From contig OZ004609.1 of the NCBI GenBank assembly GCA_963924565.1, forward strand, positions 36,332,001 through 36,396,000: DNA of 64,000 nucleotides. Reading direction: 5' to 3'. Below are positions 4,033 through 43,000 of this stretch, one piece after another. How positions within the stretch are numbered: position 1 is the first letter of the stretch; every line of letters begins with the position of its first letter. The position numbers and the translations under genes were made by a program. This stretch comes from Ascidiella aspersa (taxonomy: Eukaryota). The notes below the pieces were generated by a model. That model worked only from the letters and a program-made list of their open reading frames with translations. It was not told the DNA's origin and searched no databases.

Positions 4033-4160
4033 CTTTTTCCAAAAGGCTTGAAAGTTACTTTGATGAGTCGGTCACTAGTTTTTTCCAAAAAGACTTGAAA
4101 GTTACTTTGATGAGTTTTTTTCAAAAGACTTGAAAGTTACTTTGATGAGTCGGTCACTAG
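4033..4160. repeat. Short tandem triplication
   Basis: ttgaaagttactttgatgagt at 4048, 4095 and 4130. Confidence 0.9.
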
Positions 4161-5254
4161 AAATAAATGAATGAGGTTAAAACCTTGCTGGGTGGGAAAT
4201 AGAGTTATTGTAAAACTTAATGTTTACTGTTGGTACAAGTTGATGTAGTTTGGTTTGCTTTTTCGCTGTCCTTGAGGCACTTAATTGTGCATGAAAGCTA
4301 GCTTAATGGTGTCCACTTTAACCTTGTATTTTCTCACTTGACGTCCAGCGATCACACTTTACTATCTTCCGAGGGACACAGTTATTTTAGGATCTTAAGA
4401 AATGGAAATTTACAAAGGAAGAAGTGTTAAGGGTGATTTGCATTTGTGGCCGATTCTTAGGGTGAAAAAATAGCAGAAGGATGTCATGTTTGTGGCTCAT
4501 TAGAAAATTATCTTCAGGTCGTACAGTACTTTTTCTATTGGTTTAGTTCGACGCCATTCTTGGGCTTTCAATGCACAGATTTGCAGTTGAAGCATAAATT
4601 GGCGAATTTAGCTTAAAAAATGTCCAAAGTTTAAATTTCTTGTGGCGTACAACTAAATCATCTACCGTGTAACCTCGCAGCCATACAGCTCCGGATATAA
4701 TCGTTGCGCGACTAAATTACGCCCCAAAAGAACGAAACAGGGGGGGGGGGGAGGTATAGGTGCGCGTAATTGCGCTGCTGGTTTTAAAAGGTTAAAAGCG
4801 GCGACGCGCCCTAATTTTACACCCAATTTAACGTCCGGGCTGTAGCGTGATGCAAAAACAAACAATGCGCCAATTACTCGGCTGCATTTCGGAGCAAATT
4901 CCCTCGCAATTACGCCCGGAACCCAATCAAGCAGCTCATTTTGCGTGTCGTCATTCGCTTTAGTTCTTCAAAAAAGCGTCCTCATCTCGAAGGAAAAGGC
5001 TGTGGGTGTATTCCTTGCTCACTGGAGCGTGACCAGATCCGCCAATTAAGTCGTACACGAGCGCTGAAGCGTGACGGTCTTTTCCATTGATAAATATCAT
5101 CGCTGGTCCATCTCTTTCTCTTCGTTGCGACCATTAACGCTAAATATCTTTCGATAGAAATAGTCGTTGTTGCGCCAATGTTATCGACCGCTATGGCGTT
5201 TTGTTTCGCCAAATTACCTCAGAGCAGTCTGGAAACGAACAAGCCTACATCTTA

Positions 5255-5425
5255 GAAAGAATAACAAAGCCCATATGGCAGTAAGTAGCATTTTGAACAT
5301 TTGCAATATCTCTTAATTTCTGATGTTGAGATTGAATAGAGAGATATTGGAAACGTTCAAAATGCTACCTATTTCTGTATGGGCTTTGATATTCTAACAA
5401 AAGCCTCCAACCATTATGCTCCAAA
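5255..5425. mobile_element. Foldback/MITE-like family A copy (self-complementary)
   Basis: aaagcccata..gtagcattttgaac..caatatctct is mirrored by agagatattg..gttcaaaatgctac..tatgggcttt. Ends ccattatgctccaaa, as in other copies. Confidence 0.75.
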
Positions 5426-6850
5426 GATATAGATTTAAGATGTCGATATTGGCCAATTTAACACAACACTTTACCTTAAAAGAACGATTGTGCGAAATCT
5501 TGTTCATTAAATACTTACTTTGTGTTTTTATGTATGTGCTCCCTCATTTTTATATTTTCACCGGTTTTAGCTGTTCAGTTTATACTAATAGCCGCCATTC
5601 TACTGACATATTAATTTCCTACCTTGAAAAACAGCCCAACAATGTACTTTACCTTTATAGTAATGCAGCTTAAATTATATGGAATGGCAACTTACTGATT
5701 TTGTTTAGCCTACAAGAAGGCATAATGTGGCAAAATTAAGTATTATGCATTGGCATAATATAATTAACACGGGTAAATTTACCCTATGAATGTCGTCTTG
5801 GTACAGAAACGTTATCCCTTGAATGTGTCCAACATTGACAACGCCACACACTTAATTGAACGCTGTGTAACAGTATTTCTTGAACTTGGACATTACAGCA
5901 ATGTAAATATAAAATAACGTGTTGTTGGTCCTGGTCCAAATATGTTGACACGTTTTCTCCCCAGTAGTTCTTTGATCAAGTTTGCAAGTTCTTAGGTATT
6001 ACAAAAACAAGCTTCTGTCCAATATTGACACCACGCGAGACGTATCCAAAGTACACCGGTAACACTCGAGTGTTCATAACCGAAATCTTTCCCAATTCGA
6101 TCCAGATTGTACTAATAGCAGCGCCAAGCCACCAGCTAATTGTTTTCCAAACCGTGTCATGCAAACACAACCTATTTTTCCCCTTTGTGTTGTTGTTACG
6201 ACCCCCTCACAAACCGGCCATAGCCCTCCCCTACCCACCAGCCCACTGCCAATCTAACTGTCTGGATAAACAAACTGCAAACGACACTGCTGTAGCTTAA
6301 TTGGCCGCTTCACGAGTTATCAAAAGGTGATATCAGGGTCTCCGGGAGTCACTCTACAGCTCTTTAAGCAATTAGAATGACGGATAATGAAAACAATCTT
6401 CACTCGCTCCGTTATTTGTCATCTTGGAGCACTTGAACGTGGCCGATAATTTTGGATTGGACGTAAAAGTCACTGTTTTCTGGATATTTTTTAGGCAGGG
6501 CTACTATTTCATCTATTTTCACTGTACCGCCTAAAATAAAACGTCTTGAAAAAGTATGCTTTTTCATAGAGACTTTCTCTTCGCATATAGAAAGTAAATG
6601 GGCCTGTATTTACAAATATTGTTTCGTTAAAAATGCGGAAATAATAGGGATTTAAGTCATATTTCGTTCCCAACCGGGGTGCCTCTGCCATTTCTCATAC
6701 TCACCATTGTTTACGGGTGCAAATACTTTTTTTGTGAATCTTCAGGAATGTGATTTTTGCTCAATTGGAAAGTCACATTGCTGATCTCTAATTGTGATTC
6801 GCAATTTTCATATACTTTCCATGGCTGGCGTGTCTTTCTGTGGCTTACAT

Positions 6851-7105
6851 CCAGACTTGGACAATTAGATTTATTTTATTCTTTTCAAATTAGATCACAA
6901 TTAAAATTAAAGAATTTTATTTTTCTCAAATTAGATTAGAATTAAAATTAGGGCATTTCGATTTTTCCAAATTAGATTAGAACTAAAATTAGAGCATTTT
7001 TTTCCAAATTAGATTAGAATTAAAATTGCCAAATTCTCTAAATAGATTTTAGATTCTTCAAACTAGACAATGAACTAGAATTTAAACTTAAATTACAATC
7101 TAATT
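6851..7105 (+). repeat. Dispersed repeat with internal aattagattagaattaaaatt subrepeats
   Basis: Starts ccagacttggacaattagattt. A reverse-complement copy lies at about 17155-17237 (aattttaattctaatctaattt...gttgtccaagtctgg). Confidence 0.75.
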
Positions 7106-7896: not shown

Positions 7897-7948
7897 TTTA
7901 TTCTCCAACGTTTCGACAATCTCTTCAGGTCGCCGTTTTCAGGTGGAA
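7897..7948 (-). ncRNA. Degenerate Penelope-type hammerhead motif followed by AATAAA
   Basis: Minus strand reads ttccac-CTGAAAA-c-GGCGA-cCTGAAGAga-TTGTC-GAAACGTT-ggagAATAAA. There are two nested candidate cores and stem I is poor. Confidence 0.4.
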
Positions 7949-8857: not shown

Positions 8858-9357
8858 GTGGTACCCAATCAAAAATGTTTTGAAAATTGTTATTAAAGTC
8901 TATTAGGTCTTAATCTACAGCATCCTATAAAAAACATTTCGATACACACTTGTATTATAATCAGTTATGTGACTCGACCTAGTTGGCGAAACATCGTGGT
9001 ACCTAAACAAAAATGTTTTGAAAATGAATTACAAAGACTAATAGGTTGAGTAAATTGACATCTTATAAAGACGTTTCGATACACACTTGTGTCACAATCA
9101 GTTATGTGACTAGACCTAGTTGGCGTTGACTTACTACTTTACAAATCCGTGTTATCAAATACGTTTTGAGTTAAGTTGTGGTACCCCAAACAAAAATGTT
9201 GTGAATATAAATAGCCTGATAGATCGAGTAAATAAACAAAAATCATTCACACTTGTATTATAATCAGTTATGTGAAGTTGTCATTGCAATTTCATTTTCA
9301 AGTAGTTGTCTTTGTCATTCATTTTTAAGCTACATTACAGATCCGTGCATAGTGTTA
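8858..9357. repeat. Family B, three tandem degenerate units plus terminal arm
   Basis: gtggtacc..caaaaatgtt starts at 8858, 8996 and 9178. The units share cacacttgt..aatcagttatgtga. 9327-9355 is the reverse complement of 30942-30970. Confidence 0.75.
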
Positions 9358-12129
9358 TCTAAATGTGTTAAAATGCTAAAAAAACTTCACAAAAATGGGC
9401 AAAATTTAGATATAAATCTAAGCCAAAAACAAAGTGTTAATTAATAAAAGATTTCAACAACCTTAACAAAGAATGAAAGCCTGTTTATTATTTGTTTCAT
9501 TGTCAGCAACTGTACGAATGTGTTAATGTATTGGTATTATAGAAACGTATCAAATTTACCTACAATTATTTAACTGCTAAATCAACTGCTTGCGTTTATC
9601 AGTTAAATCATTTGTCCAGTCGGTTTTCCGTGTTGGTTTTAAATTCGCCGCTAATTGAGTATGACTGAGCGTAGTAACAGCAATTCCTTTGGGGAAAGTC
9701 ACAGACTCGAAATCAACCGTTAAACTGTTCAGTTGACGCAGTGCGATTTCGCAGTAAAAAAAGTGTTCAAAGAAGGGCTATTTTACTGCTTCCTTAAAAT
9801 CGGAAACAACGGGCGCTAACTAATTCCTCTTCCGCATCTGGCCAGGCTAAGCAGCGTGTGCTGCGCTGTTAAAATTCCAAACCGTTATTTGGACGGCTCG
9901 AGCATTTAACGAGCAGTGCGCCGTCCATGCGCGTGTTTGCTTAGTCTTTATGGCATTAATTATATTGCTCTCGCTTGCGCGTAATTATTCCACAGGCTCC
10001 ATTCGTTATAACCGGCATATTGGAATTGTCGACGTGACACACTGTTGATTCTGACGTAACAATCAACAATCACAGGTTGTGTCTGTTTGAATTAGTGCTC
10101 GGCCGTAAAACGCGTTTTTGTCTCTGTGTGGCCGTTTTGTCTTGCCTGTGTGGCGGCGAGGGGCTTGACACGAATTAATTGTTTAATTTCGTGATTTTCT
10201 GATAGCACCGCTCCGTTTGCTTTGGCCGGGCGTGGTGCCAAACCCTTTGTCAGCTTAGTTAGTCTAGTGCGACTCAAGATCCGAGAGAATCTTGTGTGTG
10301 TAAAATTCATCTATAACTAGATTCTAATTAGCGGAAGTGTAGCTTTCAGGCAGTTTTCGGTACATTTTGTTAAATGTCAGTTGGTTTAAGGCACAGTTTG
10401 TGGGAGGACTCTTTAACTTATGTAAACTGTTTAGTTTTGTCTTTAAACCAGTTTAGTTTGAAAACTGTGTCTTGCTAACATTTATAATGAACAAAAAAGT
10501 TGTTTTACGCAAATATTTTGATCTTGTGAGTTGTGACTCGTACTTCACTTAGTCGTAAAAATGTTGAAAAGTAGTTTTGCCGATTTTTACCTGGGCACAC
10601 AATCATCAACTGTGGGCTGTGTCTATGTCTCGACGAATTCAAATGTTTGTTAGGTTTTGACGTCATTAAGTGACGTTACATCTTCGCCAGTAGTTGTTTA
10701 CATTAAGCTTGGCTTTGGCATTTGGAATTAACAATACGAGAAATATTGGAAATAAGTGTTTTAAATGTACTGTATCTCATTACATTAATGAAAAGTGAAG
10801 GTCTTTTTATGAATCCTGGTTCTTTTTTATTCCAGTTTAAAGCGAAACTGTTGATCACGGCATTTTATTGAGCTTTGAATGTCAAAGTGTTTTACGAACT
10901 TTTCAATCCTAGCTTCATTGACATCTAGTTGCTGTTCAGGAATTTTTCGGGATGTGCGCCGTTATCGATTCTAACAGTTATTTTTCAAACTTGTTACCAA
11001 TATGACGTCATAACCAATTAACCGCGTTGTGTGTTTCGTCACAATATTCCAAACGAAAAGTGACATACCGTAGGAAAAATAGCGTTTTTTAGGCCACTAA
11101 AATAAAAAGGAATAGGCGGAAATAGTGTATTAATTTGTTTGCTGAGTTTTATTTGTCCCAGAAGTTTTCTTTCAACGTTATTATTTTTACTAAATGTGAG
11201 ATCGTTAATATGAAAATTGGATAATATTAACATCGAAAGTCTCAACAAGCTTTTACCTCAATTTTAATCGCTATGTTTTTAGCATTTTTTTACGCCGCGT
11301 GTAAAAATTTACTAATTCCCCTTTACCCCCCACCTTCTATTTTCTCTTACTAATTATTTTAAATATAGCAATATGAACAAGTTTTTATTATAAAATCACC
11401 ACCAAAAGTTTTAAAGTGCTAGTAACCACATTGTAAACAAGCTTACGTGAAAATTTCAAAATGCTTTTAGCTCAATTCTAATCGCTCAGTTCTAGCACTT
11501 TGTTACGTCATCTATAAAACCAACAACCCCTTTTCACCCCCGCCCCCCCCATTTTGCTACCCCGGACCCCCAACGCGCTTTTCTCAGACGCTTTCGTCTT
11601 GTTGGGATTAACCGAAGAAATCCTGGTGATTATAAAATGGCGCCCGTTATTTACGCGCCAAAGGAACAATAGCACGGTAAAGCCGCCAGAAATAGGCCCG
11701 AGAATTCATCTCTCGGATGTTTAATTTCGAGTCGGCCTTTACTCATCACAGACCTGGCTTTTATCAATGCTCTGCTGTTTTGTTTTGATGTGGTAAGCGG
11801 TCCTTTCGTTCTTTAACCATGTTTCTTGGCGAAGATATGGGTTGTTTTTTAGTCAATATAGTTAGGTTGAACAATTTTGGGTAAACTTAAAGACCAGCTA
11901 AACTTGATTTGTGTTAATTAAAGATATATGGTTTGCGGCTTTAGAAGGAATTTTAGGTAAGAAAAACAGATGTTTTTTTTTAATGAAATCAAATGAAAAA
12001 TGCGGCTTGTCATGGCGCTACGCAAAAGAGAATAGTTCAGTTTTATTTAGGCTACTTCCGGTAGTACACACAGAAATTGGATGTACAAAAATAGAATAAA
12101 GTCAGTTTAGTGCGGTTTAAAAATAAGAA

Positions 12130-12480
12130 CGTGAAAAGAATATCAAATCCTATTCATAAGTAAGGTATCATTTTGTGACCGTTTTGAATAAATTTTAAGA
12201 TAATGGTTGGAGGTTGTAGTTAGACGCAGAATGAATATCAAAGCCCATACAGAAGTAGGTAGCATTTTGAACGTTTGGAATAAATCTTAATTCATTTTCA
12301 ACTTCTGTTTAAAATGCAACCTACTTCTGTATGGGCTTTGATATTCATTCTTCGTCCAACAACAACCTCCAGCCATTATCTTAAGTTTATTTGAAACGTT
12401 CACAAAATGCTGCCTACTTCTGTATGGGTTTACTATTCATTCTACGTCTTAATACAACCTCCAACCATTATGCTCCAAAA
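12130..12480. mobile_element. Foldback-like family A copy with arms built from ~90-95 bp tandem modules
   Basis: Module ataatggttggaggttgtagt..gaatatcaaagcccatacagaagtaggtagcattttgaacgtt occurs about twice forward, then twice in reverse complement. Confidence 0.8.
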
Positions 12481-13082: not shown

Positions 13083-16000
13083 GTAAGGAAAAGAGAATAT
13101 TTAAGAATTGTTTTATATCAAACAATAAAGTTGTACCTAATAAAGCTTGGTCGTCAATGAAAATCATGATATTCCTTGAAAAACATTTATTTATAGAAAG
13201 TTTTCGGAAATTATATTACTATATCTAGTGGTTTACTATGTAGTGTATATTTTATCTCTTCGTCAAGGTTTTGTCTTTGTTTTTTATTTCTCTTTTTTAT
13301 TTGTCCAGCGGTCGTCATGAAACCAAACGTGCGGACGTTTCTAGTGCGCGCTTTCGACGACGTCGTGAAAAACCGCGTCAACTCCCTTCATTCCTCCGAG
13401 AGCGACGCACATTTTAACGCCGCTAAAAATCCCGGGTAAAAACAATTCACTTTCTGTCTCCTAAATATTTCGCTAATCACTAACCAAACCTTTTTACGCC
13501 ACAGTGATTCATCCATTCTGATGTGCTTCCCGTGTCGACTTAACTTCAATTCGATGACGTCATTCGTACAACACGTCACAAACGAGCATGACGTCACAAT
13601 TAACGGACGCGAGTTGGAAGATTTGAATAATAACAGCAATGTAAACATGGTTCTACAGGTAAGCTTTGATGCCTTTATGACGCAATAGAAGGGGCATTGA
13701 TGATGATGAATCTTAAAGCTAAAAAGTTGGATTAAATTGACATCATCTTGATAAAGACGTTCCAATGTGTTAAACTTTCTTGGCACACATTAACTGATAA
13801 GGCGCAAAGAATCCTACCACATTTTTTCCAGGGATTTATAATGGCAAAATTGTTTGTGTTAGGGGGTGCGGGTTAGCGTAAGTTCGGGTGGGTGGAATAT
13901 TATTAGTATTTTATTTATATTTATTTTGTCCACTTTTTTTTCAGTTTATTTTATTTGTTAAATAGATTCTGATTTTATTTTATTTGTTAACAATGAAATC
14001 CATATAATGATATGCCGGTGGTATTAGCTAGGTAAATGCCGTCGTTAGGCTTAATGTCAGATATTAGTGTTGAGTGGTAAAAAATATTTAATAATGCAAC
14101 TACCAAAAATGCAGATGAGCATTCCACTAAAATGAAACGAAAATTGTTGCAATATCTATTTAAATACAACAAAGCCAGTGATTCCACATATTATTTGCTT
14201 GTATTGAAATATAAGTGGTAGGATTCTGGCCAGCTACACTGATGATGATACAAGCTCGTATCGAAACGTCTTTATCAAGATGATTTCGATTTACTCGACC
14301 TTTTTGACTATGACATTCATTATCAAGCTACATTATCGATCCCTGCATTGTGTACCGACAAAGTGGCATTGTTTTGTCAATATAATGAGTTCTATATAGA
14401 TGGGTGAGATTTAATAATTCGACATTTCACCGGAATCCAGGCTTGAATCTCACTTCAAAGAGCCGCTGTAATAATAGCGCGGTCTCTCTACTTATCGCAA
14501 TCTCATTAAATCGAGTCCTTCTCACGTTTTAAGTCGTAAACAGACTCAGCAGTTTGTCGCCTTATCGGCCTACATAGATTGGGCGCAAATTAAGGGGTGG
14601 CGGGAGGCGCTAAAAGGGGTGAAATGCCAATTACGGGCCCCTGCCCTCTCAGTTAAATGCCATTTACCCGTTTCTGTCTAAGTGAAGGCCATATTTAGCC
14701 TTATATTCGATTCAAAGCGAATTTTAACGTTAAAACTAGGTGTGAAAAATCTGATTTACCCCGATAGCGTCGTTTGTATCAGAAGATGGTGAATTATCAT
14801 TTGGAGTAAAATGTCGGGTTGGCTAAACCAACTTGCGCACCCAGCAGCTAATTGGCACCTAACTGTGGATTTGAATTAGACTTCGAAGTCACTTTAGGCA
14901 CTTCTTAATGCATTTGGCACCAACCGTGATTCCTATCGCGCATTTGAAACGCTGGCAAGAAAAAGGTGTTTTATTTGCACCTGGCGTTTTGCCTTCAAGT
15001 ATTGCTTATCTATTTCAAATTGACCTTTTTGTTTTAAACGTGCGTTAGAAATTAAAGGTTCACCTAAATTTTTTGCTCGCCTATACGTCGGGTTTAATAA
15101 AATACAAGAAAACATACCTTTAAAATACCACAGAATCCAATTTTTAAAAACAGAATTCCCACAATTTTCAAATTAAATAAATTACAAAAATATGTTACAA
15201 CAACTACAGTACTCTTTCGCACCAGCAGTTATAATAACTCCCAATTGTTAACAAGCTTCAAAATGATTTATCCGATTACATACAAATTCGATTTCAACAA
15301 TGGGCCCTGACTTTATATAATTTTTCACTCAAAAATTTAAAAGATTGTGCCCTTAATTTATTGTCTTGAACCACATTTTGAGAAACTTTGTGCTAAATTT
15401 TAATTGCATGCCTTTAAACCACTAATCTTTTTTCATAAAGGGTCGAGTAAGAGTTGACGATCACTTCATTAACTTACATATAATTGAAAAGCAATATAAT
15501 GCAACAAAACTGTAGTGAGCCTTCATAAATTGCGGTTCAATTTGAAATTTCACCAATCAACAACATTTTAAATATACTTTATCTTAATTACGGAAATATT
15601 CCGCAGACCAAAAAAATTCACACTGCGGCTGGTGGGTGGTTACCCTGCTTTAAACGAAATAATTGCTTTTATAATACACAAAAACTACGAAAGTGACAGC
15701 ATCTTAATGTATTTATTTTTATTTTCCCAGAAATCTTCGGACGGAAAGAGCCTCGTCTGTTTGCTGGAACCTGTGGCGCCACCAAGTGTACAAAAACAAC
15801 CTGACGTCAAGGAGGAAGAAGGGAGTTCCCCTGAGCCAATACCGTCAGTTAAGGTAAGTTAAAAAAATATTTCCAAAAAATTTGGACAAGCCAACGTTTG
15901 CAAAAATTAGGGAAAAATTGGGAATAAAACTGTAGATTGAGCTACAACTGTGGTTTATCCAAAAACTGAGTTTTTTGTATGTCTGGGAAAACAATATTAT

Positions 16001-19000: not shown

Positions 19001-22000
19001 TTTTTCAGTAGACAAAAGATGCTATAAACTTGGAAGTACTAGCTGGCTGCAAGGTTATTTATTTTAAGCTTGAAAAGAACATTTAGGCTATTTCACAATT
19101 TAATAAAGAATTTAGTATGTTATCTTAATGTTATTTCATAGTAATATTTGAAATTTGAATGGCTTATTGCGTGTGTATCAGATTTAATTTATTGCTTTGG
19201 TAAAAGGCGCCATGAAATCCAATTATAATTTCACAGACTCAATGTGAAACTCAATTTGAGTTTAATCATATTCCACTGAAAAAAGCTCCAAGTTAATTTT
19301 CATTAAACCAATAATAAACGGAAAGTAAATAAGAGAGGGATAAGTGCTTGGCATTGTGTTTGGAATCAAGTGATTTTTATTGGTTTGTTACAGTTTTTAT
19401 ATCGGTGCGTTGTGTGCGTAATTCCTAATGTGCGTTAATTTTACAATCTACGGAATTGCCAGCGCGTCCATTAGCGCAAAATACACGCAAACTTTTCCGG
19501 TTTTAGAGCAAATGTTTGAGGTTGTAGTTATACATAGAATGAATATCAAAGCCCATACAGAAGTAGAAAGCATTTTTTAACGTTTCAAATAAACCTTAAA
19601 ATAATGGTTGGAGGTTGTAGCTAGTCGTAGAAATAATATCAGAGTCCATACAGAAGTAATTAACACTCAGAGCAGTTCAAATATATCTTTATTTATTTTC
19701 GACATGAATAAAGAGATGTTCGAAATGTTTAAAATTTTACCTACTTCTATATGAGCTGTGATTTTTCTTCAAACGATAGAAATTGCAAGACTGGCGAAAT
19801 AAATTATTTACTTTTCGCAATTATAAACTTGCTTAATTGCAGTTCGTTTTGAAGCAGTGGCTTTAAAGCCACATTTAGGTTGTAAAGTAGGCAGACCAAT
19901 AATATTTCTCAGGCTTGGCTTAATGTATGACTAACACTGAACTGTTGTGTGGTTTTGTCGAACAACTTGCAAATTGCTTGCGACCAATGCAATGAGCACA
20001 TCAGCAATTTCCGCTAGGCCTAGTTTCAGTTGAGTTACATTGCATTACTAGCCCGACCTTTTCTATCCTTAAAAATGCCATTAGCTTAATTGTTTAAATT
20101 ACTCTAAAAAATACTTTTTTTTCAATATTTTAGTAAACTGTTTTAAGCTGCTAAGTGATATATCTTAAGTTAAGTCAAAAATCTTTGCTAATTATGTGGA
20201 AACATGTTTAATCGCGGAAGGGTCCCTGTTTCATTTACACGTCGTATTTGTACACAGTACATGTGCATGTTCGTATCCTTAAACAGTTAAACTTACGTCT
20301 GTATTCCTATGCATTGTACCCATGTTCCCATTCATACACAGCCTTTGCACACACGTAATACAGACAAAAAGCATTCAGTTCTAAAGCAGATCAAACATGT
20401 TTTCCCCATTTATCCTCATTATGCACACACATATGAAGACCAACGGATGAATAATTTAAAGTATTTAATTGCAGCGTAATTTTTATTCACACACAACACA
20501 CAGACATCTGCTCTATAAAATTAATAGAGGGATGGTATCATGACAACATTCGAGCTATGTTCTTCGTAAAACAGTTTAGTTTACATTTTTTCAGACTGTC
20601 ATTTATAACGGTAATGATAAACGTGAAATAAGTTTTAATCTCCTTATTGCACGTCAGTTATACTGTTTTGTTTAAATTGTTTTCAAAGCATGTAGAGTGA
20701 TTTAATTTGTAGGTCTTCCATAACCTACAACTTTTCTTCCAAAAGTCTTCGAATGTCTTTGAATTAATTTCATCTTAAAGTTTGGCAACCTTGTTTAACC
20801 AATACACACACGATGATAACGTTCGTTTTTTTTTGTATAAAGCTACCTCGTAGTGGTTCAAACCCAATCAACCGCCAAATTTAAGAAATAAACATTTTCC
20901 CAAACCCCCGTAGAGCGCGATTGGCGCTTTCAACTCAACTTCAAAACTTGGAACAACAATCACACACAATCACGCACACAGGGCTGGCCTTAAACAAAAC
21001 AAACAAGACCCAGTTGAGCGAACGGCCCGAATAATTCAGTCGCCAACGGATTAGGACACTTATTTCACACGTTATAATTTCCGCGCTTTGCTCGATGTTA
21101 TGATAACCTGGCCCGACAGGCCGCGGCCTGCTCCACTTACTTAATTTTTGACTCATAACCAAAAGGCAACAGCAGCGGCTCCGGAACACCGGAACAAGAG
21201 TTATAGAACAATTCTTGTTTTGATTCGAATCTCTCACAATCGAACGGGCCTTTGTGCCGACAATAATTGCGCCTACTGTTGCGTCACAGTGGATTTGCAG
21301 CAGCCAGGGCGAGTTAATCTGGCCGGGAAGGGATTAGATGGAAATCGGTGAGATCAAAACGGTTTAGGGGCGAAGTTATAAACCTTGGTGTTAACTTGTT
21401 GTTTGTGAGAGTTTTTATTTGTCAAATATTTTCAATAATTATGTTTGTTTTGGGATTATCCATAACTGCCAATTGTTGATCTTTTACAAATCAAAAAAGT
21501 TTTGCTCGAATTAATTTAGACAGGTTTGGCGTAACTACAGTATTCTGTGATGTATATTGAAAACGGTTTTAAGTCTATTTAAACCTTTTTTAATCGAATT
21601 TGTTCCTAAAAGCTTTTAATTTTTAGGTTTTTTAATAAAAAGGCGTTTGAAAATTAAGTGTTTACATCGTTGTTTGACATTATTAGAATGTAATGCTATC
21701 ACAATTGCTTTGAAAGCCGTTTATGAAAGAGCTAGTAAATATATATATAATTAACAAAGGTTTAAAGATATGTTTAATAGATATGATCGTCCGTTAAATG
21801 ATTGTATTTTGGGAATTGGGTTCCAAAGCCAAAATAATAAACTAAAAATGAACTACAATATAACTAAACACCAGGCAAAAACATCAAAGCTATTCAATGC
21901 GCGTCGAGTTTAAATATGACGACTTAGATTATGCTGTGCTCTTCAAAATACAGCACGCTTTGCTGAACAGCTAATGCCCGTACGTGCCTAATAAGCCTGC

Positions 22001-28000: not shown

Positions 28001-31000
28001 GGTCGCGTTTGAATTCATTTGGTCGCCGACTGCATTAGTTTACATGGTTAAAAGCAATACGAAGACGGACCCATAGTTGGTCAATTTTATATTTTTATGC
28101 TACTGCTTTATTTTTTCTTTGTCATTTCAAGCTAGCAAAATATTTAACGAAGAGAATTGTGCCAAAGCTCCTCTATTTCAAAGCGACAAAGTATTTTTTA
28201 TTCAACAAACTATAACAAATATCCACGAACAATTCCAACCATTAAAAAGTAAGGTTTCGCAGAACGAAACAAGCTAAAATTGTTGCGATTAACACAAATA
28301 AACACACATCATCAAAGGTGTTTGCTTGATGTTTCAACCATCATCAGTTAGTTATGCGTAATGAAGGGGAACCTGAAGCAGCGTTACCGCTGGGTTTTTA
28401 CCCCATTAAATGCTCCACTTTTCTCAATCACAGCCAGTTAAATCACAGTTAAAAACCTAACAACGTCTAAATGTGCGTAGCCGTAGATAAATGCAGCGGT
28501 CTGAAAAACGGAAACCTAACACCCCCGCCTTTCATGTGACCTCCCCCCTGCCGCGCCCTATTATTACATCATAAATTGACGGCAATTATCCTGACCCCCT
28601 GAATCGGCAATTTCGTGCTAGGCCGGTCGAAATTTTCGATGCTATCGAAGGATAGGCGCCGGAAGAAATTGTTTTTGGCCCGTGTTTTACATTTAATGTT
28701 GTACTAGATGGGGGTAGAGCAACAGTGCTATTTCTGCGCCACCTATTGAGCTATATTAAAATTTAATGGCCTTCCAAAGGCGCCCTGTAAACTTACCAGC
28801 CGTGACCGCAAAAGAAGAAAAACTGAAAGCCCAAGAAAATTCCAACTTTGTAATATTTCTTTTCTTCTTCGTTTCTCTTTCTCTCGCCCCTTTTTTCTTT
28901 TATTTTCAAAGCGCCGCTTTTTTCTCTTGGCTTCTCTCGCGCCGCTTAATTGCGTCTCGGCGCGAAGTAGGCTGTCGTTTCCGAACGGGAGAGCGCTCGC
29001 GTTTTAAGATTGTTTCGACTTTAGACGCGACGCGAGCTCGCCGCCGCCGCCGCCGACAGAATTTCCAGGTAGCGCGACGCTGTTGTGACGAAACAGAGGC
29101 GTTTGTTTGGCAGCGGTGACGGAAAGCGGTCGCCTGTGGAAGGGAAGATGTTTGTTGCTGGTGCAGCTTAAGCCGTCGGCGAAAGAAACTGGGAGTTAGG
29201 GGAATAAAAATAGGTTTTCCGCAAATTTAGAAAAAAGTTTTACCTAAAAAAAGAATTTAGTTTAAAATGTGTAGCAAGTGCATTTGTAAGACTGTTCAGT
29301 TGAGTTAAGCTAACGAAAATTACGCTAAGGTTGAGTTTTAAGACTTGAAACTTTTTAACATTTCGAGACTTAATTAGTTAATTTCTTGTCGCTTATTCGT
29401 CGCTTTTTAGTTCCGTTTTATTTCTTATTCGAGCTCTAAATACTAAACCGACGTTTCGAAAATTTACCTAAAAATTGAAATGTATGTCAAGCTCAAAGTT
29501 CTTGGTGTAATATCTCCGGAAGTATTGAAGTTACTGATCGGAAATTTTTACACATTAACGCAAGCAGACCTATCCGGCCATCATACTTTTAGCAAAAATA
29601 TTTTTGAAATATGAGGTGCTTGGTGGAGTATAGTGCAAAGTCAAAAACGAGAAACATCTAAAAACGTGTAAAAGTTAAGCGAAATCTACTTTGGCAACTA
29701 AATACTACAGACTTATAAAAAATACTCTTTGGAATTTTATGACGTATTTAAAGTCGCTTATAAGATGTAAAATATATAAATTTCGCCCTAAATGAATCGT
29801 CAGTCTTTAGAAAAGATGAAATATACAAACAGACTCACAGTGTGCGATGAATGTGCCAGTGCCAATCAAAAGTCATATTCTGGAGCGGAATCGTTACTTT
29901 GTTGACTTGACTGGACGAACTTTTTAACAGCCCTACGTAGGCGTTGGGTTGCGGGATGTATTGGCAGTAAAAAGCAAGCTCTGGCGTCGATTTACAGAAT
30001 CTATGCAAATAAGAAGCAGTGGAGTTGAGAGTGCGAATGCCTGGCGTCACTTGCGCGAGCAATTTATAATTGATTGCTGTTTGCCGAACTAATGATGGCG
30101 AGGTAATTAGGGCTAATGAGCGCTGAGTAATTAGGTATATTTGCCCGTAACTTGAATGCTAAACGCAGCGCTCATTTGCAAAGCTTTTTTTCGCCCTGGT
30201 TTACCAAGTTGGCCAGCGTAACGCAAACAGTAAAAACGACTCATTTGTGTGAATAGTGGTTCTAGTATGTAGCTTTATCATGTAGATTTTTTAACGCAAA
30301 AACAAGTTTCAGTCTGATACACTGGAAGTTATTGCCATTTCACGTAAAAATTTGATCTATTTTGCTTGTTTGGTCATAGTAATGACGTCATTAGATATTG
30401 CATCGGCGATAGTTTTAACCAAAATGTCGCGATCGGAATAAAATAAATACCAAGTACCGGACATTTCTAATCTTTATGAAATCATTAGCAGTTAGGTTTC
30501 TGCTCGTCGATCACTGTTCCACTGAAGCGTATGTAAGCAAGTAAAACTTTAATTGCAAAAACATTTCCTTGAATTGGATGATCTCACGTGTTTAATTTAA
30601 GAAACTAATGATGCCAATTAGACGAAATATATATTCTTGGGAATTGAAATACTCTGGTACTTCAACTTTCCATACAATCATTAACATAGCCCGTGTGGAA
30701 AAATTGACAGATGTCGCGAGAAAATGGCAGAAAAAAATCTGATTGACCCGATCCACTAAAAGTCAAAAGTGCAGCACGCTTAATAAGCGTATGGAAAATA
30801 TATGGGCGCACATGAGGTTGTTTATGGATGTGCGGGTTTGAAAACAACTCGCTGATGCACTGGTAATACTTTCCACAATTAAGTTTTAGTAATGCCCAAA
30901 ACACCGCAATTCTTTAAAGACATACTATAGGCTACTTGGGTACACTATGCACGGATCTGTAATGTAGCTTGATAATAAATTGCAAAGCCAAAAAGGTCGA

Positions 31001-34000
31001 GTAGATCGTCAAATTAGCTGAAGGTGATAGAAGTTCATACCTAAATGTCTTAATCAAGATGATGTCGATCTACTCGACCTTTTTGGCTTTGCGATTTATT
31101 ATTAAGCTACATATTATACATACTTTGAATTTAAGGTTTAAGCAAAACCCCATTTCTATCGCGCGCATTCCACTCAAAGCATTCGCTTGGAAAACTTTGT
31201 TTGGACATCTGCTGCCTTTTCCGTGATGTATTCCAGACTTCTGGCTTAGCAGCTGGTATCATTAAAGTTGCATCAAAATTCTCGGAAGCAAAAAAACAGA
31301 GTTAGAGATTCCAGTAGCGTTTTTCTTCTATAAAATCCTAGATTTCTTATCATTTGCATTTTCTTGGGTTAAAGCAGTTTTTGTGTTATGCATACATAGT
31401 ATTTGGTATTTTTTATGATTATTATATGTGTTTTTCGTGCTACGTAAAGGCAATGATTTTTCAAAAATGTGCCGACTCTAGATATTACGAAATTCAACCT
31501 TTCCAGTCCATTGATCCTTTTTTGTTTTATAAAACCCAGCTTAAATTCCCACCTGGGATAAAGTGCTAGTTTTAGTTCAAATCGCCAGCTTCAAACCCCA
31601 GTTTTACCACATCGCTATTTACCATTATATGAAAGACTGTAAATTCCTTCAATAGGGTTGACGTGATTTCAAGTAATAGCGTTAAACATCACTTTTGCGA
31701 AACTAAAAACTTAATTTGGCGCAATATACTGTTAGTGCGAATTAATTCTAAGGTAAACTGTTTTAAATAGAAGTGGTTCTTCTATTCGTCGTTATAATTT
31801 TCCAAGATTATGTTTTTGTATATAAACCTAATTGCGGTAACGAAATGCTCACATAGATAGATAGATATATTTTATTTGCACGTTTGTAATCGTTTTATAA
31901 CAAAGAATGCAAAGAAACAAATAAATTAACGTGCAGGGTGACGAAAGACCAAAAGGTCACCAAGTCAGTCACCCTTTAAAACACTATAGATTGTATAATG
32001 TATGATGCATGTACTGCGAAAAACCACAAAACTGCAGAAAAAAAACACTAAAGAAAACTAAAGATGTATTTTACATGTATTATTATCCCATGATGCAGTC
32101 GAACTCGTTATTACGAGAAAACAGTGCGAAAAGTGGCAAAAAAAACAAGTAAAAAATTGATAAAAATTTTTCATCACAAAAAAAAAGGTTGAGAACAATA
32201 TGTGATTTTTCATATCTTATGGATTTTTTTGAAAACATGTTACTTTTTGGGAGCTTAATTTCTGTTCAAGTTATTTATTTTTCTCGCCCTAAAAGAGCTT
32301 TAAAACCTCAACTATTTATTTCTGTCTGCAAACTGGAATTTATTTCATAATGTTCATCTTGAAATACCTAACGTCGCCCCAATTACTTTAACGGCCCTAC
32401 GGCTCGCATTTTTTACTGTTAAGTTCGATTTATATCGATGCATTGAAATTATCTCTCGTAACTTGATACTTTAAGTTCGGCAATTGCTTGAAATTACGGC
32501 TTAAGATGCTCGCTTTTAATAGGACAAAATGTTGAGCTCAAAATTATTATCAATTGAAATATAATAGTTTAATTTTGTCCGCTTGCTCAAATTCTAGTCG
32601 TTCCTTGTAAGTAAATAGTTTTGAACACGATTTCTTGCGCCGTGATAAAAATCAATACTTTAATGCATTTAAATGGCGAGTTCGCAGTTTAAATTATAGT
32701 TATACGAAGCATCTTTGCGTCATGCCAGTAATACATGTTAGCTCGAACTGTTCTTTAATTGAATAATTTCAAAATTGCTGTGAGCGTTACGTAAGATCCA
32801 GTGGTCCCATTTTAAGGAGAAATTTCTTATCTCTATAATTCGTCTCCAATCAATGGATGTCTACAATTCCATGCGTCATATCTATCCCGTCATATTTTCC
32901 GCCCATCTATGTAATAGGAATTGCCGCTGAATCACAAAGAAAGGGTATTAAGTGAGCTTTAAATGTTCAGTAATAATTATTTTGACCCCAGTTGTCATAA
33001 AACAGTCATTATGTGTTTGAAGCCTGAAAACCAAGTTATAAAGTACATTTTACTTATTGGATTGTTGAATTGCGGGCCACTTTTATACCACGGTAATTGC
33101 TAGCAAAAGTAAAAAATATATTTAAATTTTTTGAATTGGTATAGCATGTTAATTTGTTTTAAAAAAATCAAATGATTAGTTATTTAGAACTTAAATTTCT
33201 CTTATGAGGAAAGATTTATTCCATAATGTGCGAAATTAAAAATGTAATAAATTAGAATTAGATGTTGAATTTTCCCCAAAATTCAAATAATTAGTTGTTT
33301 ATTACTTACAGCTATCTGCGGAGCAAATATTGCATAATGTGCTACGTTGAACATAACAAGGTTACAACTTTCCAGATTCAAACAAAATTATCCAGTTCAG
33401 TAATAATTGCCCCTTATTTATCATTTCGCACAACACAAAAGGGGATACCAGCTACAAAAACGTTGAACCGTCTAAACACGTAGACACTAAGCGGCGATAC
33501 GCGGTCCCTATACTTCTGCATAATTGCCAATCCCGTCCCTGACCTAAAATAAACAGGGCTGTGTCGATGGGACGTCCCTTGTCCGCCAGACCGTGACCAA
33601 TTGCCGAACGCCGTGTGCGCCTCCCGTTCTATTCATCGCCGATATGAGTAATATTCAACTCAGCTGGATATCGACAGATAACCGTTGGGCGTCCAGCGTT
33701 ATTTAATTGCCATCTTTTAAAAAAACAACGATTTTTTTCTTTTCCAAAGCGCTATGTGTTATTAATCACAGCGTGACTTGACTGGGTAACCGCTGGTGTT
33801 TCTCGGTGATAGTTAATTGCCTATTTTTCTTACCGGGTTACCGTGTGATCTGACGCGTTATGGAAGCAATTTTCGTCTAGAATTTCGCTATTTTCTTTTC
33901 GGCGCCCGGATTAGATATTCTTCCCCCGAAACACGCGCAAAAAAACGCTTTGAAATTTGTAAATCTTGATATCAGCAGTTTTAATGTAAAACAAATAATA

Positions 34001-37000
34001 GTTCTTTGGGTTTGCGGGTGTATGTTAAGAATGAATAAAATGTTATACCAACTTCTGTATGGGCTTTGATATTTATTCTACGTCCAACTACAACCTCCAG
34101 CCATTAATGACCGTAAGATTGTTTGCAAAACGTTCATAAAATGCTACTGTATAGGTTTGGTATTCATTGTACAGGCTTAATGTGTAACTAAAAACTATAC
34201 TGTCCTATTCCGTTATTACCCATTCGTTAATTAAAAATCCAAACGGCTGCAGGTGGCAAATTTGGTCATACACGAGGATTTGTATTCTGTTCAATATTTT
34301 TTGGCATGTGTAAAAATAGTTTTCTGTACCGACGCCAGTAATAATAACTGTCTTGTCGCTTGAAAAGAGTTTATTGCATCGCTGCTTGGCCTTCTTACTA
34401 TCCTATTATATTTTCTTCCAGTCATTTTCGTCTCACGTTTCGCATAGATTAAGATTTTCATCTCGATAAACTTGGGAAAACTTCAGTGAGGTTTCTACAG
34501 ACGTGAAAGTGCGCCAAAAATTACAGCTTTGGCCTAAAGGCAAATTAACCTTACTAAAGATAACTTTAATTATGCAAATTGCAAAAATGACTTCCATAAC
34601 CGTTAAAAAAACGGGTTATATAGAATGTTTTGACTATTTTATCATGTGCTTAATTTTCTAAGCAAATAAGGTAGCAAACCCTTGGAAATAGTCTTTTATA
34701 CGTAAAAGTCTTAAGGCAGAAGAGTATTTCTGTGCAACTAAAACGCCTGGAGCCCAGTCAGTCTGTCCGTTCCAACAAAAACAGGAAAACGCGCAAACTT
34801 TTTATCCGGGCGCTTGTTATTTTTACTCGCTGCCGCTTTTGATGGGTTCACCTTACGGTCAACTTCTCGAAATTTCCCCGGCGCCATTTTTGGTCTGGTT
34901 CCTGCACGTTTAAGTCTTGGTGTGAAATCGACACCAATTTTTAAAATAATGCTGCTTTTCATATATTTTTCTGTTTCAGTATATTTATGGCTACAGTATT
35001 GCGTCAGCGACAGAATTATTTACGGGATTTTTTTAGGTTGTTTCAAGGCGAAACTATGTGATTGTTTTGTAAGAAAACAACAAAATAGTAATTTTTTTTT
35101 AATGTGTTAGTGGCGTTTTAATTACTTTTATTCGATATTTACTACATTTTTTATATACCGGTACCCAACCGGTGTTAATAATAAAGGACAAGAGTATGCG
35201 ACGATATTTCGACCCTTGAAGCAAAAAAGGGAAAATTTAGAATAGATGTTTAGTTTCCTGTGGCGGTAATTTTTAGTTGACGCAAGCGCACAGAGTAAGA
35301 AAAAAAATGAAGACTAATTTGTACATTTGTAAATAGGACCCAGCGCTGTTCCAAGGAAGTTTAAAATGTTTTTACCCAAGTATTTTACTCCCCAGAAATC
35401 CTATGTTGCAAAGCATAAAACCCTTTAAAAATAAAATTCATCTGCTTTGTCCATACGACATTACCTGCTTTATTTAGAGTAATTTTACCTCCTTTGTTAA
35501 ACCGCCATTAAGCCAACTTAAGACAACACGCCTGGCATTTTCCTACGATTTCACCTTTTTTGCCCCCCCCCCTTCCTTTGTGCGCAGGTGCCCCATTGTT
35601 TTCGCACAATAATTAGGACAAATTTATTTATCCGCGTTCACGCATGGCCGACTCGCTTTGTCGCGTCACAATAGCAAAGCTCTTTTGTTGCCCCGCGCCG
35701 GAATTTCCGTTGCTCGCGCGTCGTTAGCTGTTTTTTTTTCCCAAGTTTTTTTTTTCAGTTGAATTATTAGTAAGCGCGATTTTTAACATTTATTGAATGA
35801 AATAACTTGAAAATAACGAGCGAAACATTTTCCATCGATTTGCGCGTCACAAATCGATATAAAATGTAGTTGATTACTTTAAAGTCAAAAAATCCTTTTT
35901 TTTACTAATAACAACTTTTAAACACCCAAATTAAGAAAATTAAACCTAACAATGGCGTACCAATATCGTTAAATTTAGAAATCACTCAAAAATATCTTAA
36001 AAGTAACTCACCAAGAATTCTTAGGCTTTTCTTAGGGGGGTTTATGTGGTACACTATAATCATGTAGGGAAAAGTAGGTCATTAAAAAGTTCTTTGAAAG
36101 TTTTTTATTGTCCTTTCGCCGTTCCAGCTGAAGTGGTGATTTAATGGGATAAGCAATTAATAAAAAAACGGCCCCTGTCTGTTTTGCCAGCGCCCTTTTG
36201 TGCATTTTAAAGCGGCGTCGAGATTATCCCAATTTACCGACGCAACGCTGCGGAATAATCGCCTTATCAGCGCCTTTTAGCGCGCTGGGAAACTTCGTTA
36301 GGTGGCAACTTCAAAGCACAAATTGTTGAGGGGAGAGGGGGGGTGGTTTGTTAAGTTTGATGCCGTCGCCGTTCAACGGATTTTCTTATTCACACGAGCG
36401 TCAATTGTTGTGAATGTTATTTAATGAGGTCCCTTTTTCATCAATTTAACTAATACGCATCAAGCATTAGAGCTTAATGGTAATTTCAAGCAAATTTGGT
36501 TGAAATACATAATAATTTGGCTTATAGGTACGCCTATAATGTAATTTCAAGTCTATTTTGAATCTCAAAGCATTGTTCCTAAGTATGTTGCAGCTTTAGA
36601 ATTTTCTAAACGTCTTCCATTCTTTAAGTAGTATTTTAGTAAATCTGCATTGAAAATTTCTTTAAAACTACTGAATCGTTAACCAATTTATGATTTCAAT
36701 ATTAAGGTCATCTTTGTATTGAAGTTGCCATTCTAGCGCTCTTTTGAGAGTGCGCCGGGCGACCCAATTCGCCGGGCGACCCAATTTATTGAATTGATTG
36801 TTATTCTTGGCATTTCAAGCACTATAGAAGTCGAACCTGCGCACTCTGTGTTTATTTTCTCTTGTCTAATGATAGATCATAGGCTCGTTACTTCGCTTGT
36901 AACAAATAATCAGAACCCAATTTTCGGTATGACATCACGAGCATTGGATCTGTTAAAATCTCTAATCAACCATCGCCACTTAAAGCTCAAACAACCTAAA

Positions 37001-40000: not shown

Positions 40001-43000
40001 AAAATGGTAAAAATAACCAAAATTGACAAGTGCAATGCTATTGTTTTTATTATACCAGGATGAAATTTGCTTTTGCGTTGAGAAACCCATTTTTCGATTT
40101 TAATCTGATATTTTCTCAGAAATTACCTTTAAAAGTTCAAGGCTTTGGGATTTGAAAAACAAACGTATGAACCCCCTCTAAAATGTAAATCGCAAAACCA
40201 AATGGGCGACCCTCCCTCAAAAACGTGAATCGCACCCTTAGTTTGACTTGCTCGCGGTTAGCGTGAGAGCTGAGCACGGTTTGACCTTTACATCAACAAA
40301 CAGAGCAACATCGCGAATTAATTAGACGCAAAATAACGACAAAGATAAGCGCGAATAAGGAGAAACGATTGGTCTCCGTCGTTTAATTAAACCTATTTTC
40401 CTTTCTATCAGATGCTACAGTCCTCCTGGTTTCCCATTAAAACCTTATCTCGGTTCAGGGCTGGTTACTATGTCCTCATAAACACAAGCTGCTGTCGTCA
40501 ATTACACGCCTGTCTTTCACCCAGCTTGGCTCGCCACTTAATAACGGCTTCACGCCAAATCAGTGTAATTGCTGCAATTTCGTAAACGTGTTTTTAAAAC
40601 AAACTCACCCGCGCCCCTGAATGCAAAACGACGTTTTTTTGCGCGATAAGATTAGGAAGACCATGTGCCGTGTTTCCTAAAAAATCCCCGGGCTGTAAGT
40701 TTCGTTTTTAACAATTGGGGGACCCCTACACTTTTTTTTAAAACACGAAATATTAAAAATACATCTCGGTTTAATTGGAATCAGTTCTCAAAAAATCTAA
40801 AAGTTGTTCACGATCTGTAAAATGATTATATATTATAATTATTCATATAAAATGATTTTCCTCAGCAGTAAATTTTCACGCTGAAAAAATATTTACCTAT
40901 ACTCCGGACAGCGTCTTTATGGACCCCCTTGGGTTCTAATTCATCTTTTGAGAAACACTGATTTAAACGTGCTTTGTATCGCAAAATGATCGAATAGCCA
41001 TGTTTTTTAATGTGTTTTCAAAACAAATTGCTGAAGAATCTTGAATTTTCACCGAAAATTGTTTATATTATATAACCTAATTTTCCATGGTTGAATGCGC
41101 ACCATCAGCGGCCTTTTCCGCCTCGAGGTCGGTCGCGCTTGGTCGCGCACCAATCACAAGGCTCGGAAGCGCCGCAAAAGCCGTTATTGCGCGAAAATTG
41201 CGCGGATTTTGATAATTTTGCATGACGAGATGATTTGTGACGTTAGCTGGTCGCCGATTCGCTTCTAATACGAAATGAATTGCATTTTGTCGGTCGCGCG
41301 ATGCCCCGGCGCGCTATTATTGGCGAAAAAGATGCGTCGGGAGGCTAATCTGTGCTGACAGTTGCAACAGCAAGCCAAGCCCCGGTTATCATCAAATAAC
41401 GGCGCCCGACGCGATAATAAGGCCTCTGGGCGCCCCGACAGCGCTCCATGTCGCATATAATTGCAATAAAAATCGATGGCGGCCATGACAAACATCGTTA
41501 TGCGACGGAATAATGCGGCAGGATGCGGCAGCACGCCGCGTCCAATTTCGCCGCTTATTCCGCGTGTTATTGTCGTCTTTATTGCGCCCCACTGTTGATT
41601 AGCTTGGCCAGGAAACGACGGCCTAATCAGGTTACCCATCCATCGCTTCTTACCGCAGCTATGGTATTGTCTTATGGCCGCTTTTCTAGAGTCTAGAATC
41701 TTGACGGCCTCTTTTTTAGGATTTAGCCATTTAACGGCGTTTTTAATTGTCCTAATTTTGCGGTGTAGGCGTGTAAATACCGAGGAATAATAAAAAGTAA
41801 TACTATAAGAAGCAGCTATTTGAAATAACTAGAGTGTTTGTTGTATAAACAAGCTTTCTGGGCGAAGCTTTTAAATCTTTATGTTAAGTCATTCCTAAGT
41901 ACTAAACTCGCATTATTTAAAGAAACACCAACAGAAACCAAAAAAATCTACTTATTACTGTTAGATTGTGTATTAAAAGGCTTGATTGTGTTACGTTAGA
42001 GGAGGAATCTTAAACTGGAGTCCGTGGACTTTTTTAGAGGGGTCCATTTTGGACAAAATTGAAATCTTGATGAATGGTTAAAAAATTCAAATTTTTTGGG
42101 CGAAAACAGCCGGTTATATAAGTCAATTTATGACGTCATCTCAAAATTCTACGCCGACGTTTGGTCCACCGAACTATAAAAAAATGGGGTCCGCAAAATA
42201 AGAATTTTAAGAATCACAGGCTTACACACGTAGATGTAAGACCCGAGTTTTATAAAATGTCTACCAAAAATAATAGTCTTAACGACACTCCTTCAAACTT
42301 TATAAACTACTGTGAATGTTTGAGCTTATTTGACACAAGCGGACCGCCGGATCCAATATCCACGCTCAATGCCGAGCTCTCAAATTACGCGGCAATCTCA
42401 TGCCGAGAAATATTGACTTTTTCGTCGCTTCGTTACAGTATCACGACCCATTCCCTCCCCGTTTTAAACCCGTCAATTATTTCACCGTTTTCGCCGTTTT
42501 ACGAGGTTATGGCAATTCGGCGCAAAATTTGAGGTTTGTGCAAACTGGATTAGAAAAAAAATGGCTTTTAATGTCTTGGCGGATAAATGTTACGGCTCTT
42601 CTGTGAAATTGGTTCAGTTTATTTCGCTGGTTTTGGAAGTTAAGTTGGACAACGTTTAGATACAGCAGTGTTTCATAATTCGTTTTCGCGGCAATCCAAT
42701 ACTAAGGATAAGTGTAACAGTGAAGTTTTGGTGTTTCTATTCTCTTTTTTCTTGTAAGCTTTAGTTAAACACAGAGGAAATAAGACATTAGCATCAATAA
42801 TTTAGAATTCGAATAATATGAGCCATGTATTTGTATTGTTTTTTCGCAATTTTCTCAAATATTTGAGAAAGCTTGATCAGGACCAATCTCGACAAATCAA
42901 ACCACATAAAAAATTTGCCGGTGACGTCAAAAGGTGGTTTTGCCGGTGACGTCAAAAGGTGGTTTTGCCGGTGACGTCAAAAGGTGGTTTTGCCGGTGAC

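Follow-up and report, generated by a model that had tools for sequence, protein, structure and literature searches.

A hammerhead ribozyme core that lies in an inverted repeat, in an intron and on the sense strand, raises the question of which element brought it there and whether it can cut the pre-mRNA that contains it. The case considered here comes from a 64,000-nucleotide stretch of Ascidiella aspersa DNA (the window). We consider it very probable that the locus is the ribozyme-bearing end of a Penelope element, which inserted head-to-head in an intron of a ZFHX-like gene and was later split by a MITE, and that it is hence likely unable to self-cleave.

The host gene is identified by one exon upstream of the motif:

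13497 to 13658, + strand: ZFHX-like coding exon with the first conserved C2H2 finger, its 5' limit approximate (tblastn with 30 long homologues, best E 3e-13; donor GT at 13659-13660)

In the same comparison the next homologous block is at 52937 (about 52.9 kb), and the homeodomain exons lie beyond the window, on the + strand. The motif was first described as sense to the ZFHX pre-mRNA, and this is borne out: the ZFHX-like host gene is read from the + strand, and its intron after the exon ending at 13658 contains the motif. Judged from these homologies, the intron may be up to 39 kb long if it contains no intervening unconserved exon. One RNA run gives a few sense-strand reads on the 13497-13658 exon, and no joints. 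We also note that a ZFHX-like exon at 54494-54595 ends in HYKYR and is followed by a stop in the read-through frame, which is most likely a mere splice boundary.

The hammerhead core

Two features make up what remains of the ribozyme on the 3' side:

14239 to 14270, + strand: minimal type I hammerhead core, with an extra U before G10.1, an ACGU palindrome and loop 3 missing; nominal cleavage after 14270
14271 to 14275, + strand: 3' strand of stem I, UUUAU, now partnerless; UUAAU in most family copies

The core reads CUGAUGA (14239-14245), U (14246), GAUAC-aagcuc-GUAUC, GAAA (14263-14266), CG and UC (to 14270), so that the window copy has the CUGANGA...GAAA...UH of minimal hammerheads; as read from the sequence, 14247-14251 pair with 14258-14262 in a 5-bp stem II. 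A generic descriptor of the core and stem II matches nothing else on either strand of the 64-kb window. In the genome, the 32-mer of the family core has 463 exact matches versus none for a reversed control, and a generic minimal-hammerhead pattern has 3554 matches versus 9 in the control. The core nucleotides, the inserted U, stem II and the ACGU thus stand as they were first described.

Among 136 family cores, gathered with up to five mismatches allowed, position 7 and one loop base are the most variable, and the remaining positions are kept in 128 to 136 copies. G10.1 is paired in each of 21 aligned rows and 86.7% of the stem II cells are paired; the palindromic stem III ACGU is invariant in these rows, which is not independent evidence, since the search pattern demanded ACGU.

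The running of Infernal with hammerhead models, which the earlier note proposed, gave no match at E<=10, whether in a scan of the window, in 14180-14330 or in an uninterrupted copy. That no Rfam hammerhead model scores the core would be expected if the motif were a chance match, and in the sister families the region of stem II also encodes the first residues of the ORF. By these models the motif is not a canonical type I hammerhead, with its stable stem III or loop 1-loop 2 contact. The Rfam miss is, however, explained by the limits of those models for motifs that have no stem III, and the genome counts given above (463 versus 0 and 3554 versus 9) argue strongly against chance. So does the variation of the stems. 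We compared 20 motif types from this genome, for which 14 of the 24 motifs of one list were used; seven motifs that nearly duplicate others were omitted, as were three copies that pair poorly (L185, L195 and L199+), so that the following figures are biased upward, and the rows are related. The first pair of stem I forms in all 20 types versus 11.3 with shuffled partners, pairs 2-4 of stem I form in 45 of 60 cells versus 34.1, and pairs 2-4 of stem II in 53 of 60 versus 39.4; none of 5000 shuffles attained any of these three values. When the window copy is added, 79% of the cells are paired versus 60.7% shuffled and at most 54% slid, and double-sided changes in both stems amount to 46 cells versus 17.7 shuffled. 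Stems I and II therefore covary across motif types, as the earlier note had asked to see, and one sister family has the U3-A8 core covariant. The counts and the covariation refute a chance match, whose probability we regard as negligible.

A closing stem I of 4-5 bp is found at the level of the family, whose stem I is weak: at least five contiguous pairs form in 44 of the 136 cores, and two large subfamilies have 2-3 pairs followed by a C-A mismatch.

These properties are those of the minimal hammerheads of Penelope-like elements (PLEs) described by Cervera and De la Pena (2014, PMC4209133), which share the type I core, the unpaired base between positions 9 and 10.1, G10.1-C11.1, the palindromic 15.2-16.2, the absence of loop 3, the short stem I and the U3-A8 variant of the sister family, and which occur as thousands of solo copies per genome and as opposite-strand pairs 100-700 bp apart. 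Stem II is 5 bp long here versus 7-8 bp in the schistosome families of that account, and the window copy is unlike them in that its stem I is physically broken by a MITE.

A Penelope terminus in head-to-head insertions

By its sequence, the core is part of the pLTR of a Penelope-like retroelement. Coordinates such as +86, +117 and -7 are counted below from C3 of the ribozyme. In one of the 30 best genomic copies (L020), the sequence upstream runs into RT C-terminal and GIY-YIG-type coding, with a stop 102 nt before C3; in this copy as in L032, L033, L036 and others, the ORF ends some 90-110 nt before this core. A protein search in which 150 candidates were scored yielded 151 matches among them, and those of the same family share the terminus. 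Pfam RVT_1 is found in a same-family piece (L071, E 1e-7) and in two sister families, a weak GIY-YIG match occurs in sister family C only (E 7e-4, below the cut-off), and a VYxLxCxC..YIGxT..H..H motif, of the GIY-YIG/CCHH type, is present in a same-family piece and in a sister family. The family that owns the terminus thus has RT followed by a C-terminal GIY-YIG, as expected of an EN+ Penelope-like element. The earlier note had proposed a Penelope-type minimal hammerhead and a Penelope origin, and suggested a search for autonomous elements with this terminus; both proposals hold, since RT and GIY-YIG coding ends about 100 nt upstream of it in same-family copies.

The pLTR of the family follows the RT-GIY-YIG ORF; besides the minimal hammerhead it contains a TATA-like box, an initiator-like motif and the opening codons of the ORF. 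On sequence grounds, 14238-14356 is such a pLTR with first codons, as described for PLEs (PMC3846280, PMC11167929). In this family, the frame of the first AUG, within the hammerhead, is closed by a stop nine codons on, and it is from a second AUG, 10 nt past the cut, that the conserved N-terminal reading begins; in sister families B and C, the ORF opens at an AUG within the hammerhead. The peptide encoded after the cut resembles the N-terminus of the uninterrupted 836-aa RT-EN ORF of sister family B, and L130/L181 extends it by a few codons. In families A and B, a motif search for a CX2-5CxxC linker preceding EN found none; the element may be of the Penelope/Poseidon rather than of the Neptune type.

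Sister families B and C have uninterrupted frames of 816-848 aa in tandem, with a spacing of about 2.7 kb and a hammerhead opening each, which is the pLTR-ORF-pLTR arrangement with one hammerhead per pLTR. Among the loci fetched, we found neither an intact tandem of this kind nor a full-length uninterrupted ORF or full N-terminal ORF of the exact family of the window. The Poseidon element PAc of Anolis (Frangieh et al. 2024, PMC11167929) is described as likewise having a hammerhead at the ORF start, the same order of RT and C-terminal GIY-YIG, and copies whose ends fall at two sites in the first codons, some 30 nt from each other. Sister families B and C resemble it in opening their ORF at the AUG of the hammerhead, and the present family differs in its use of the second AUG.

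Young, near-identical tandem Penelope units with uninterrupted RT-EN frames of 816-848 aa are present at L077 (G000:C3:20855500-20865000), L079 and L080-L082, and they would be better material for the study of the ribozyme than the window locus. Three frames that adjoin family copies, L012:227-1012 (-), L071:5485-6201 (+) and L076:2428-4347 (+), look by eye similar to gag-like, integrase-like and DNA-transposase-like proteins from other mobile elements.

Regarding the inverted repeat, the earlier note considered 13690-14357 as one palindromic element and as a member of the same family as 30939-31112. Sequence comparison confirms the common family and shows that 13700-14359 consists of two elements, a Penelope inverted pair and a nested, unrelated MITE. 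The Penelope features of the window are the following:

13688 to 13699: left copy of the 12-bp target-site duplication that flanks the Penelope insertion, now decayed and 10/12 identical to 14360-14371
13700 to 13766, - strand: inverted, short-ended Penelope arm, +21 to +86, 77% identical to the reference copy
14280 to 14356, + strand: first 26 or so codons of the Penelope ORF, to the long 3' end of the family at +117; +87 to +117 is the 'tail'
14360 to 14371: right copy of the 12-bp target duplication
30939 to 31112: second head-to-head insertion of the same family, arms +45 to +117 inverted and -10 to +94 direct; core decayed
8912 to 9355: third, more decayed cluster of the same family, with two minus-strand cores, both mutated, and a + strand tail

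The direct arm ends at 14356 (+117) and the inverted one at +86, so that a 5'-truncated inverted copy, a one-sided tail and a target duplication are all present. A 10/12 match of the duplication was equalled by 37 of 5000 random flank pairs. The left arm is 77% and the right arm 88% identical to the reference; this difference could mean two separate insertions, but the 12-bp duplication and the variants common to both arms argue for one.

The same anatomy recurs in the genome. In 59 loci, sampled from the first 100 listed among the 463 core matches, an adjacent outward-facing pair is seen 36 times (two pairs of loci look duplicated). One arm ends at +78 to +105 and the other at +110 or beyond in 34 of the 36 pairs, and the outer flanks have a common string of 9-13 nt in 14. 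The inner junctions vary by locus: arms of pairs begin anywhere between +84 and -341, and the arm of one solo copy begins as far out as -1133; some copies reach more than 1 kb into the ORF.

Could the palindromes nevertheless be mobile on their own, as a MITE-like element or as a retrozyme-like one with its own hairpin or circular RNA? The high proportion of palindromic loci (36/59), and the common flank string of at least 9 nt in 14 of the 36, would agree with this idea. On the contrary, the junctions differ from locus to locus, the arms are unequal, neither a uniform repeated unit nor tandem arrays of short units were seen among the family loci, and ordinary PLE insertions are described with the same anatomy (PMC3846280, PMC8557442). 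We therefore hold an independent palindromic element to be scarcely probable. The earlier proposal of a distinct, non-autonomous, MITE-like palindrome does not survive, given the unequal outer ends, the variable inner junctions and the copies that extend far into the ORF: neither 13700-14359 nor 30939-31112 has the equal TIR ends and uniform unit length of a MITE, and their homology to a retroelement ORF is likewise unlike a MITE. A head-to-head pair of Penelope stubs can easily pass for a MITE.

The head-to-head pLTRs of EN+ PLEs (Arkhipova et al. 2013, PMC3846280; Craig et al. 2021, PMC8557442) are described as having, like the window pair, an inverted 5'-truncated copy beside a direct one, a tail of 30-40 bp on one arm, the first codons covered and a putative TATA plus Inr; the target duplication is 9-10 bp there and 12 here. 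The window locus differs from them in that both its arms are stubs with no ORF body, and in the MITE of the direct arm. Non-LTR retrozymes (Li, Clavereau and Pollet 2026, bioRxiv 10.64898/2026.07.22.740005), as presented in that preprint, are also hammerhead-bearing, non-coding and derived from PLE pLTRs, but they consist of tandem units with a type I hammerhead each, whereas the family is dispersed and the locus is an inverted pair with a single core.

The nested MITE and the predicted behaviour of the copy

Four features describe the interruption of the direct arm:

13784 to 13793, + strand: original 5' start of the direct arm, with the displaced 5' strand of stem I, CAUUAA; in register with a family copy when the MITE is omitted
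13793 to 13800: left copy of the 8-bp target duplication of the MITE, ACTGATAA, which matches 14238-14245 at 7/8 positions; no other duplication length fits
13801 to 14237: nested TIR element (MITE) in the ribozyme, 437 nt, about 230 nt longer than the usual copies of about 203 nt
14238 to 14245: right copy of the 8-bp duplication, ACTGATGA, which kept CUGAUGA beside stem II

The bases immediately left of the MITE, CACACATTAA (13784-13793), are the family's own pre-C3 bases, with the displaced 5' strand of stem I at 13788-13793. The nested element has TIRs of about 24 bp, for which the genome gives 2725 exact matches versus 0 for the control, and the spacer of the window pair matches this separate repeat family, so that the simpler view of a copy merely 5'-truncated at -1 was dropped. 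Of 15 sampled copies that have both TIRs, 9 are flanked by an 8-bp duplication with at most one mismatch; five further sampled loci have no partner TIR within 700 nt. With its TIRs, target duplication of fixed length, typical size of about 203 nt and high copy number, the element is like other MITEs of TIR DNA transposons with 8-bp duplications, which we take to be a hAT- or P-like duplication length. It is devoid of a hammerhead and has no relation to the palindrome first labelled MITE-like. A contig of run X1 spans the junction between the MITE and the core, but this run is possibly the source of the window itself; the same contig skips 96 nt of the MITE (13940-14037), which suggests a length allele.

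The MITE has displaced the 5' strand of stem I by about 445 nt from the core; one A-U pair remains, which is not a stem I. The hammerhead was first called intact: this is true of the core and wrong for stem I, whose 5' strand the 437-nt insertion has split off. The heptamer still looks intact because the insertion duplicated the start of the core, and this calls for caution, since a broken ribozyme that retains its catalytic heptamer is easily taken for a whole one.

Folding predictions agree with a disabled copy. The probability of stem I is 0.0 in the window copy, and a MITE hairpin that would restore stem I also has a pairing probability of 0.0. When 13660-14420 is folded, C15.2-C17 pair with the inverted arm (p about 1.0), and in a local fold they pair with 14278-14287; the local hairpin is predicted at -10.9 kcal/mol, versus -7.6 in an uninterrupted copy, and the duplex of the inverted arm (13700-13766 with 14259-14326) at -59 kcal/mol. 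Nearest-neighbour folding does not yield stem I even in family copies that are uninterrupted, so that folding alone cannot tell live copies from dead ones; what argues for a dead copy is that the 5' strand of stem I has been physically lost from the core. In uninterrupted copies (L004:1530-1545 and others), CGUCUU is predicted to fold with AAGAUG, which would hide both the cut site and the AUG of the ORF; this hairpin may be an off-state.

The earlier note wondered about nicking of the ZFHX pre-mRNA while allowing that the copy may be inactive. The inactivity is supported by the broken stem I; nicking by this copy is unlikely, since the cut site is moreover predicted to pair elsewhere. Minimal PLE hammerheads are described as inactive as monomers and weak even as engineered dimers or trimers (PMC4209133), and that of Poseidon as cleaving only with protein (PMC11167929). 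In a same-species RNA run (X4, of which about 6% was read, at low depth), no RNA end piles or joints were found at the locus; 98% of the aligned reads continue into unlike sequence, so that they come mostly from other copies and give no evidence on cleavage.

It may be asked whether the copy serves as the substrate strand only, the intact RNA of the family and the element protein pairing with ACGUC-UUUAU and occasionally nicking the ZFHX intron in trans. The copy retains the core, the ACGU palindrome and the 3' strand of stem I, potential partner copies number in the hundreds, family-derived reads occur in one RNA run, and minimal hammerheads are reported to act as dimers (PMC4209133; review PMC6765202). 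But the helices would be marginal (stem I +1.9 kcal/mol, with a U-U mismatch; stem III -1.7), they would compete with the local hairpin and the inverted arm (-10.9 and -59 kcal/mol), and co-folding yields a duplex with swapped stems II instead of an active dimer. Besides, an intronic nick need not stop splicing. We consider such cleavage in trans very unlikely, and prefer the reading of a disabled passenger.

The following history would then apply. By analogy with the biochemistry of Poseidon (PMC11167929), the element protein would have cut into both DNA strands and started reverse transcription from two internal priming sites close to each other, which would give two 5'-truncated, outward-facing arms with ends at +117 and near +87, within a duplication of about 12 bp. 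The MITE with its 8-bp duplication inserted at A(-1)..A9, duplicating ACTGATRA, and the core still reads CUGAUGA. In the pre-mRNA, GAAACGUC is predicted to pair with the inverted arm or in the local hairpin, and neither a cis nor a dimer fold would form, the motif being probably an inherited passenger. The locus itself is of little weight: its family has several hundred such stubs, in a genome with about 3500 minimal-hammerhead matches, and this one is disabled; its anatomy and its motif are already published, as described in PMC4209133, PMC3846280, PMC8557442 and PMC11167929.

A later intron of the same ZFHX-like gene contains another head-to-head pair (L089:430-540, G000:C3:36406001-36416000), with two complete hammerheads of family E that have a 4-bp stem I, one of them on the sense strand. 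From its sequence, this pair appears a better candidate for intronic cleavage than the copy at 14239-14270.

5' junctions and other repeats of the window

The 5' junctions of the copies gather around a predicted initiator at -7. In the 59-locus sample (68 cores), the 5' junction is exactly at -7 in 12 cores and between -5 and -11 in 30; in 30 loci chosen by their tail (25 cores), the corresponding numbers are 5 and 8, a few of the calls being substitutions or small insertions rather than true junctions. The A of an initiator-like TCACAT falls on position -7, and TATAA precedes it by 30-31 nt. Families A, B, C, E and F, but not D, have a TATA-like box 35-42 nt upstream of C3; only 4 of 24 listed motifs have one, many of those motifs being truncated. 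By eye, there is no clear excess of an untemplated G, as from cap copying, at the -7 junctions. Use of the T-rich ...CAG just ahead of stem I as a 3' splice site finds no support, since the copies whose junctions fall there have no upstream exon in common.

We infer that the stubs are cDNAs that run from internal priming sites to the 5' end of the RNA. The map of the ends (+117, +87 to +95, and a 5' peak at -7) fits the two-site internal priming of Poseidon and predicts a start site. More tentatively, it is possible, if somewhat doubtful, that the thousands of solo stubs of about 125 nt are run-off cDNAs of the capped 5' end of an mRNA that starts at an initiator 7 nt before C3, and that the ribozyme is a protein-triggered off-switch that removes the cap and the first AUG, rather than a cutter of tandem precursors. 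An mRNA start 7 nt before C3 and about 30 nt after the TATA would place the first few nucleotides of the mRNA in stem I. If this is true, genomic 5' junctions would map the start sites of PLEs without RNA data. TATA- and Inr-like motifs in pLTRs have been noted before (PMC3846280), and the Penelope of D. virilis is described as TATA-less (PMC2377424). A literature search found no paper that combines Penelope, promoter, TATA and hammerhead, PMC3846280 nonetheless noting the TATA/Inr-like motifs.

Last, we note that a second hairpin repeat family of the window also consists of Penelope pLTR/ORF-start stubs, those of sister family C with the U3-A8 core variant (5254-5426, 12129-12479, 19514-19765, 34045-34106, 46376-46419, 49807-49864 and 51443-51555). 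Five cores inspected there are mutated, and weak miRNA-like Rfam matches occur around 5.3 kb. Hammerhead-like cores of other families, each one base off, lie at 46231 (+), with G12 changed to A, and at 7942 (-), with C3 opposite A8. Short tandem arrays are present at 56057-56353, 58837-59036, 42889-43038, 6873-7035 and 4034-4160, with periods of 33, 35, 25, 41 and 35-47 nt, respectively.
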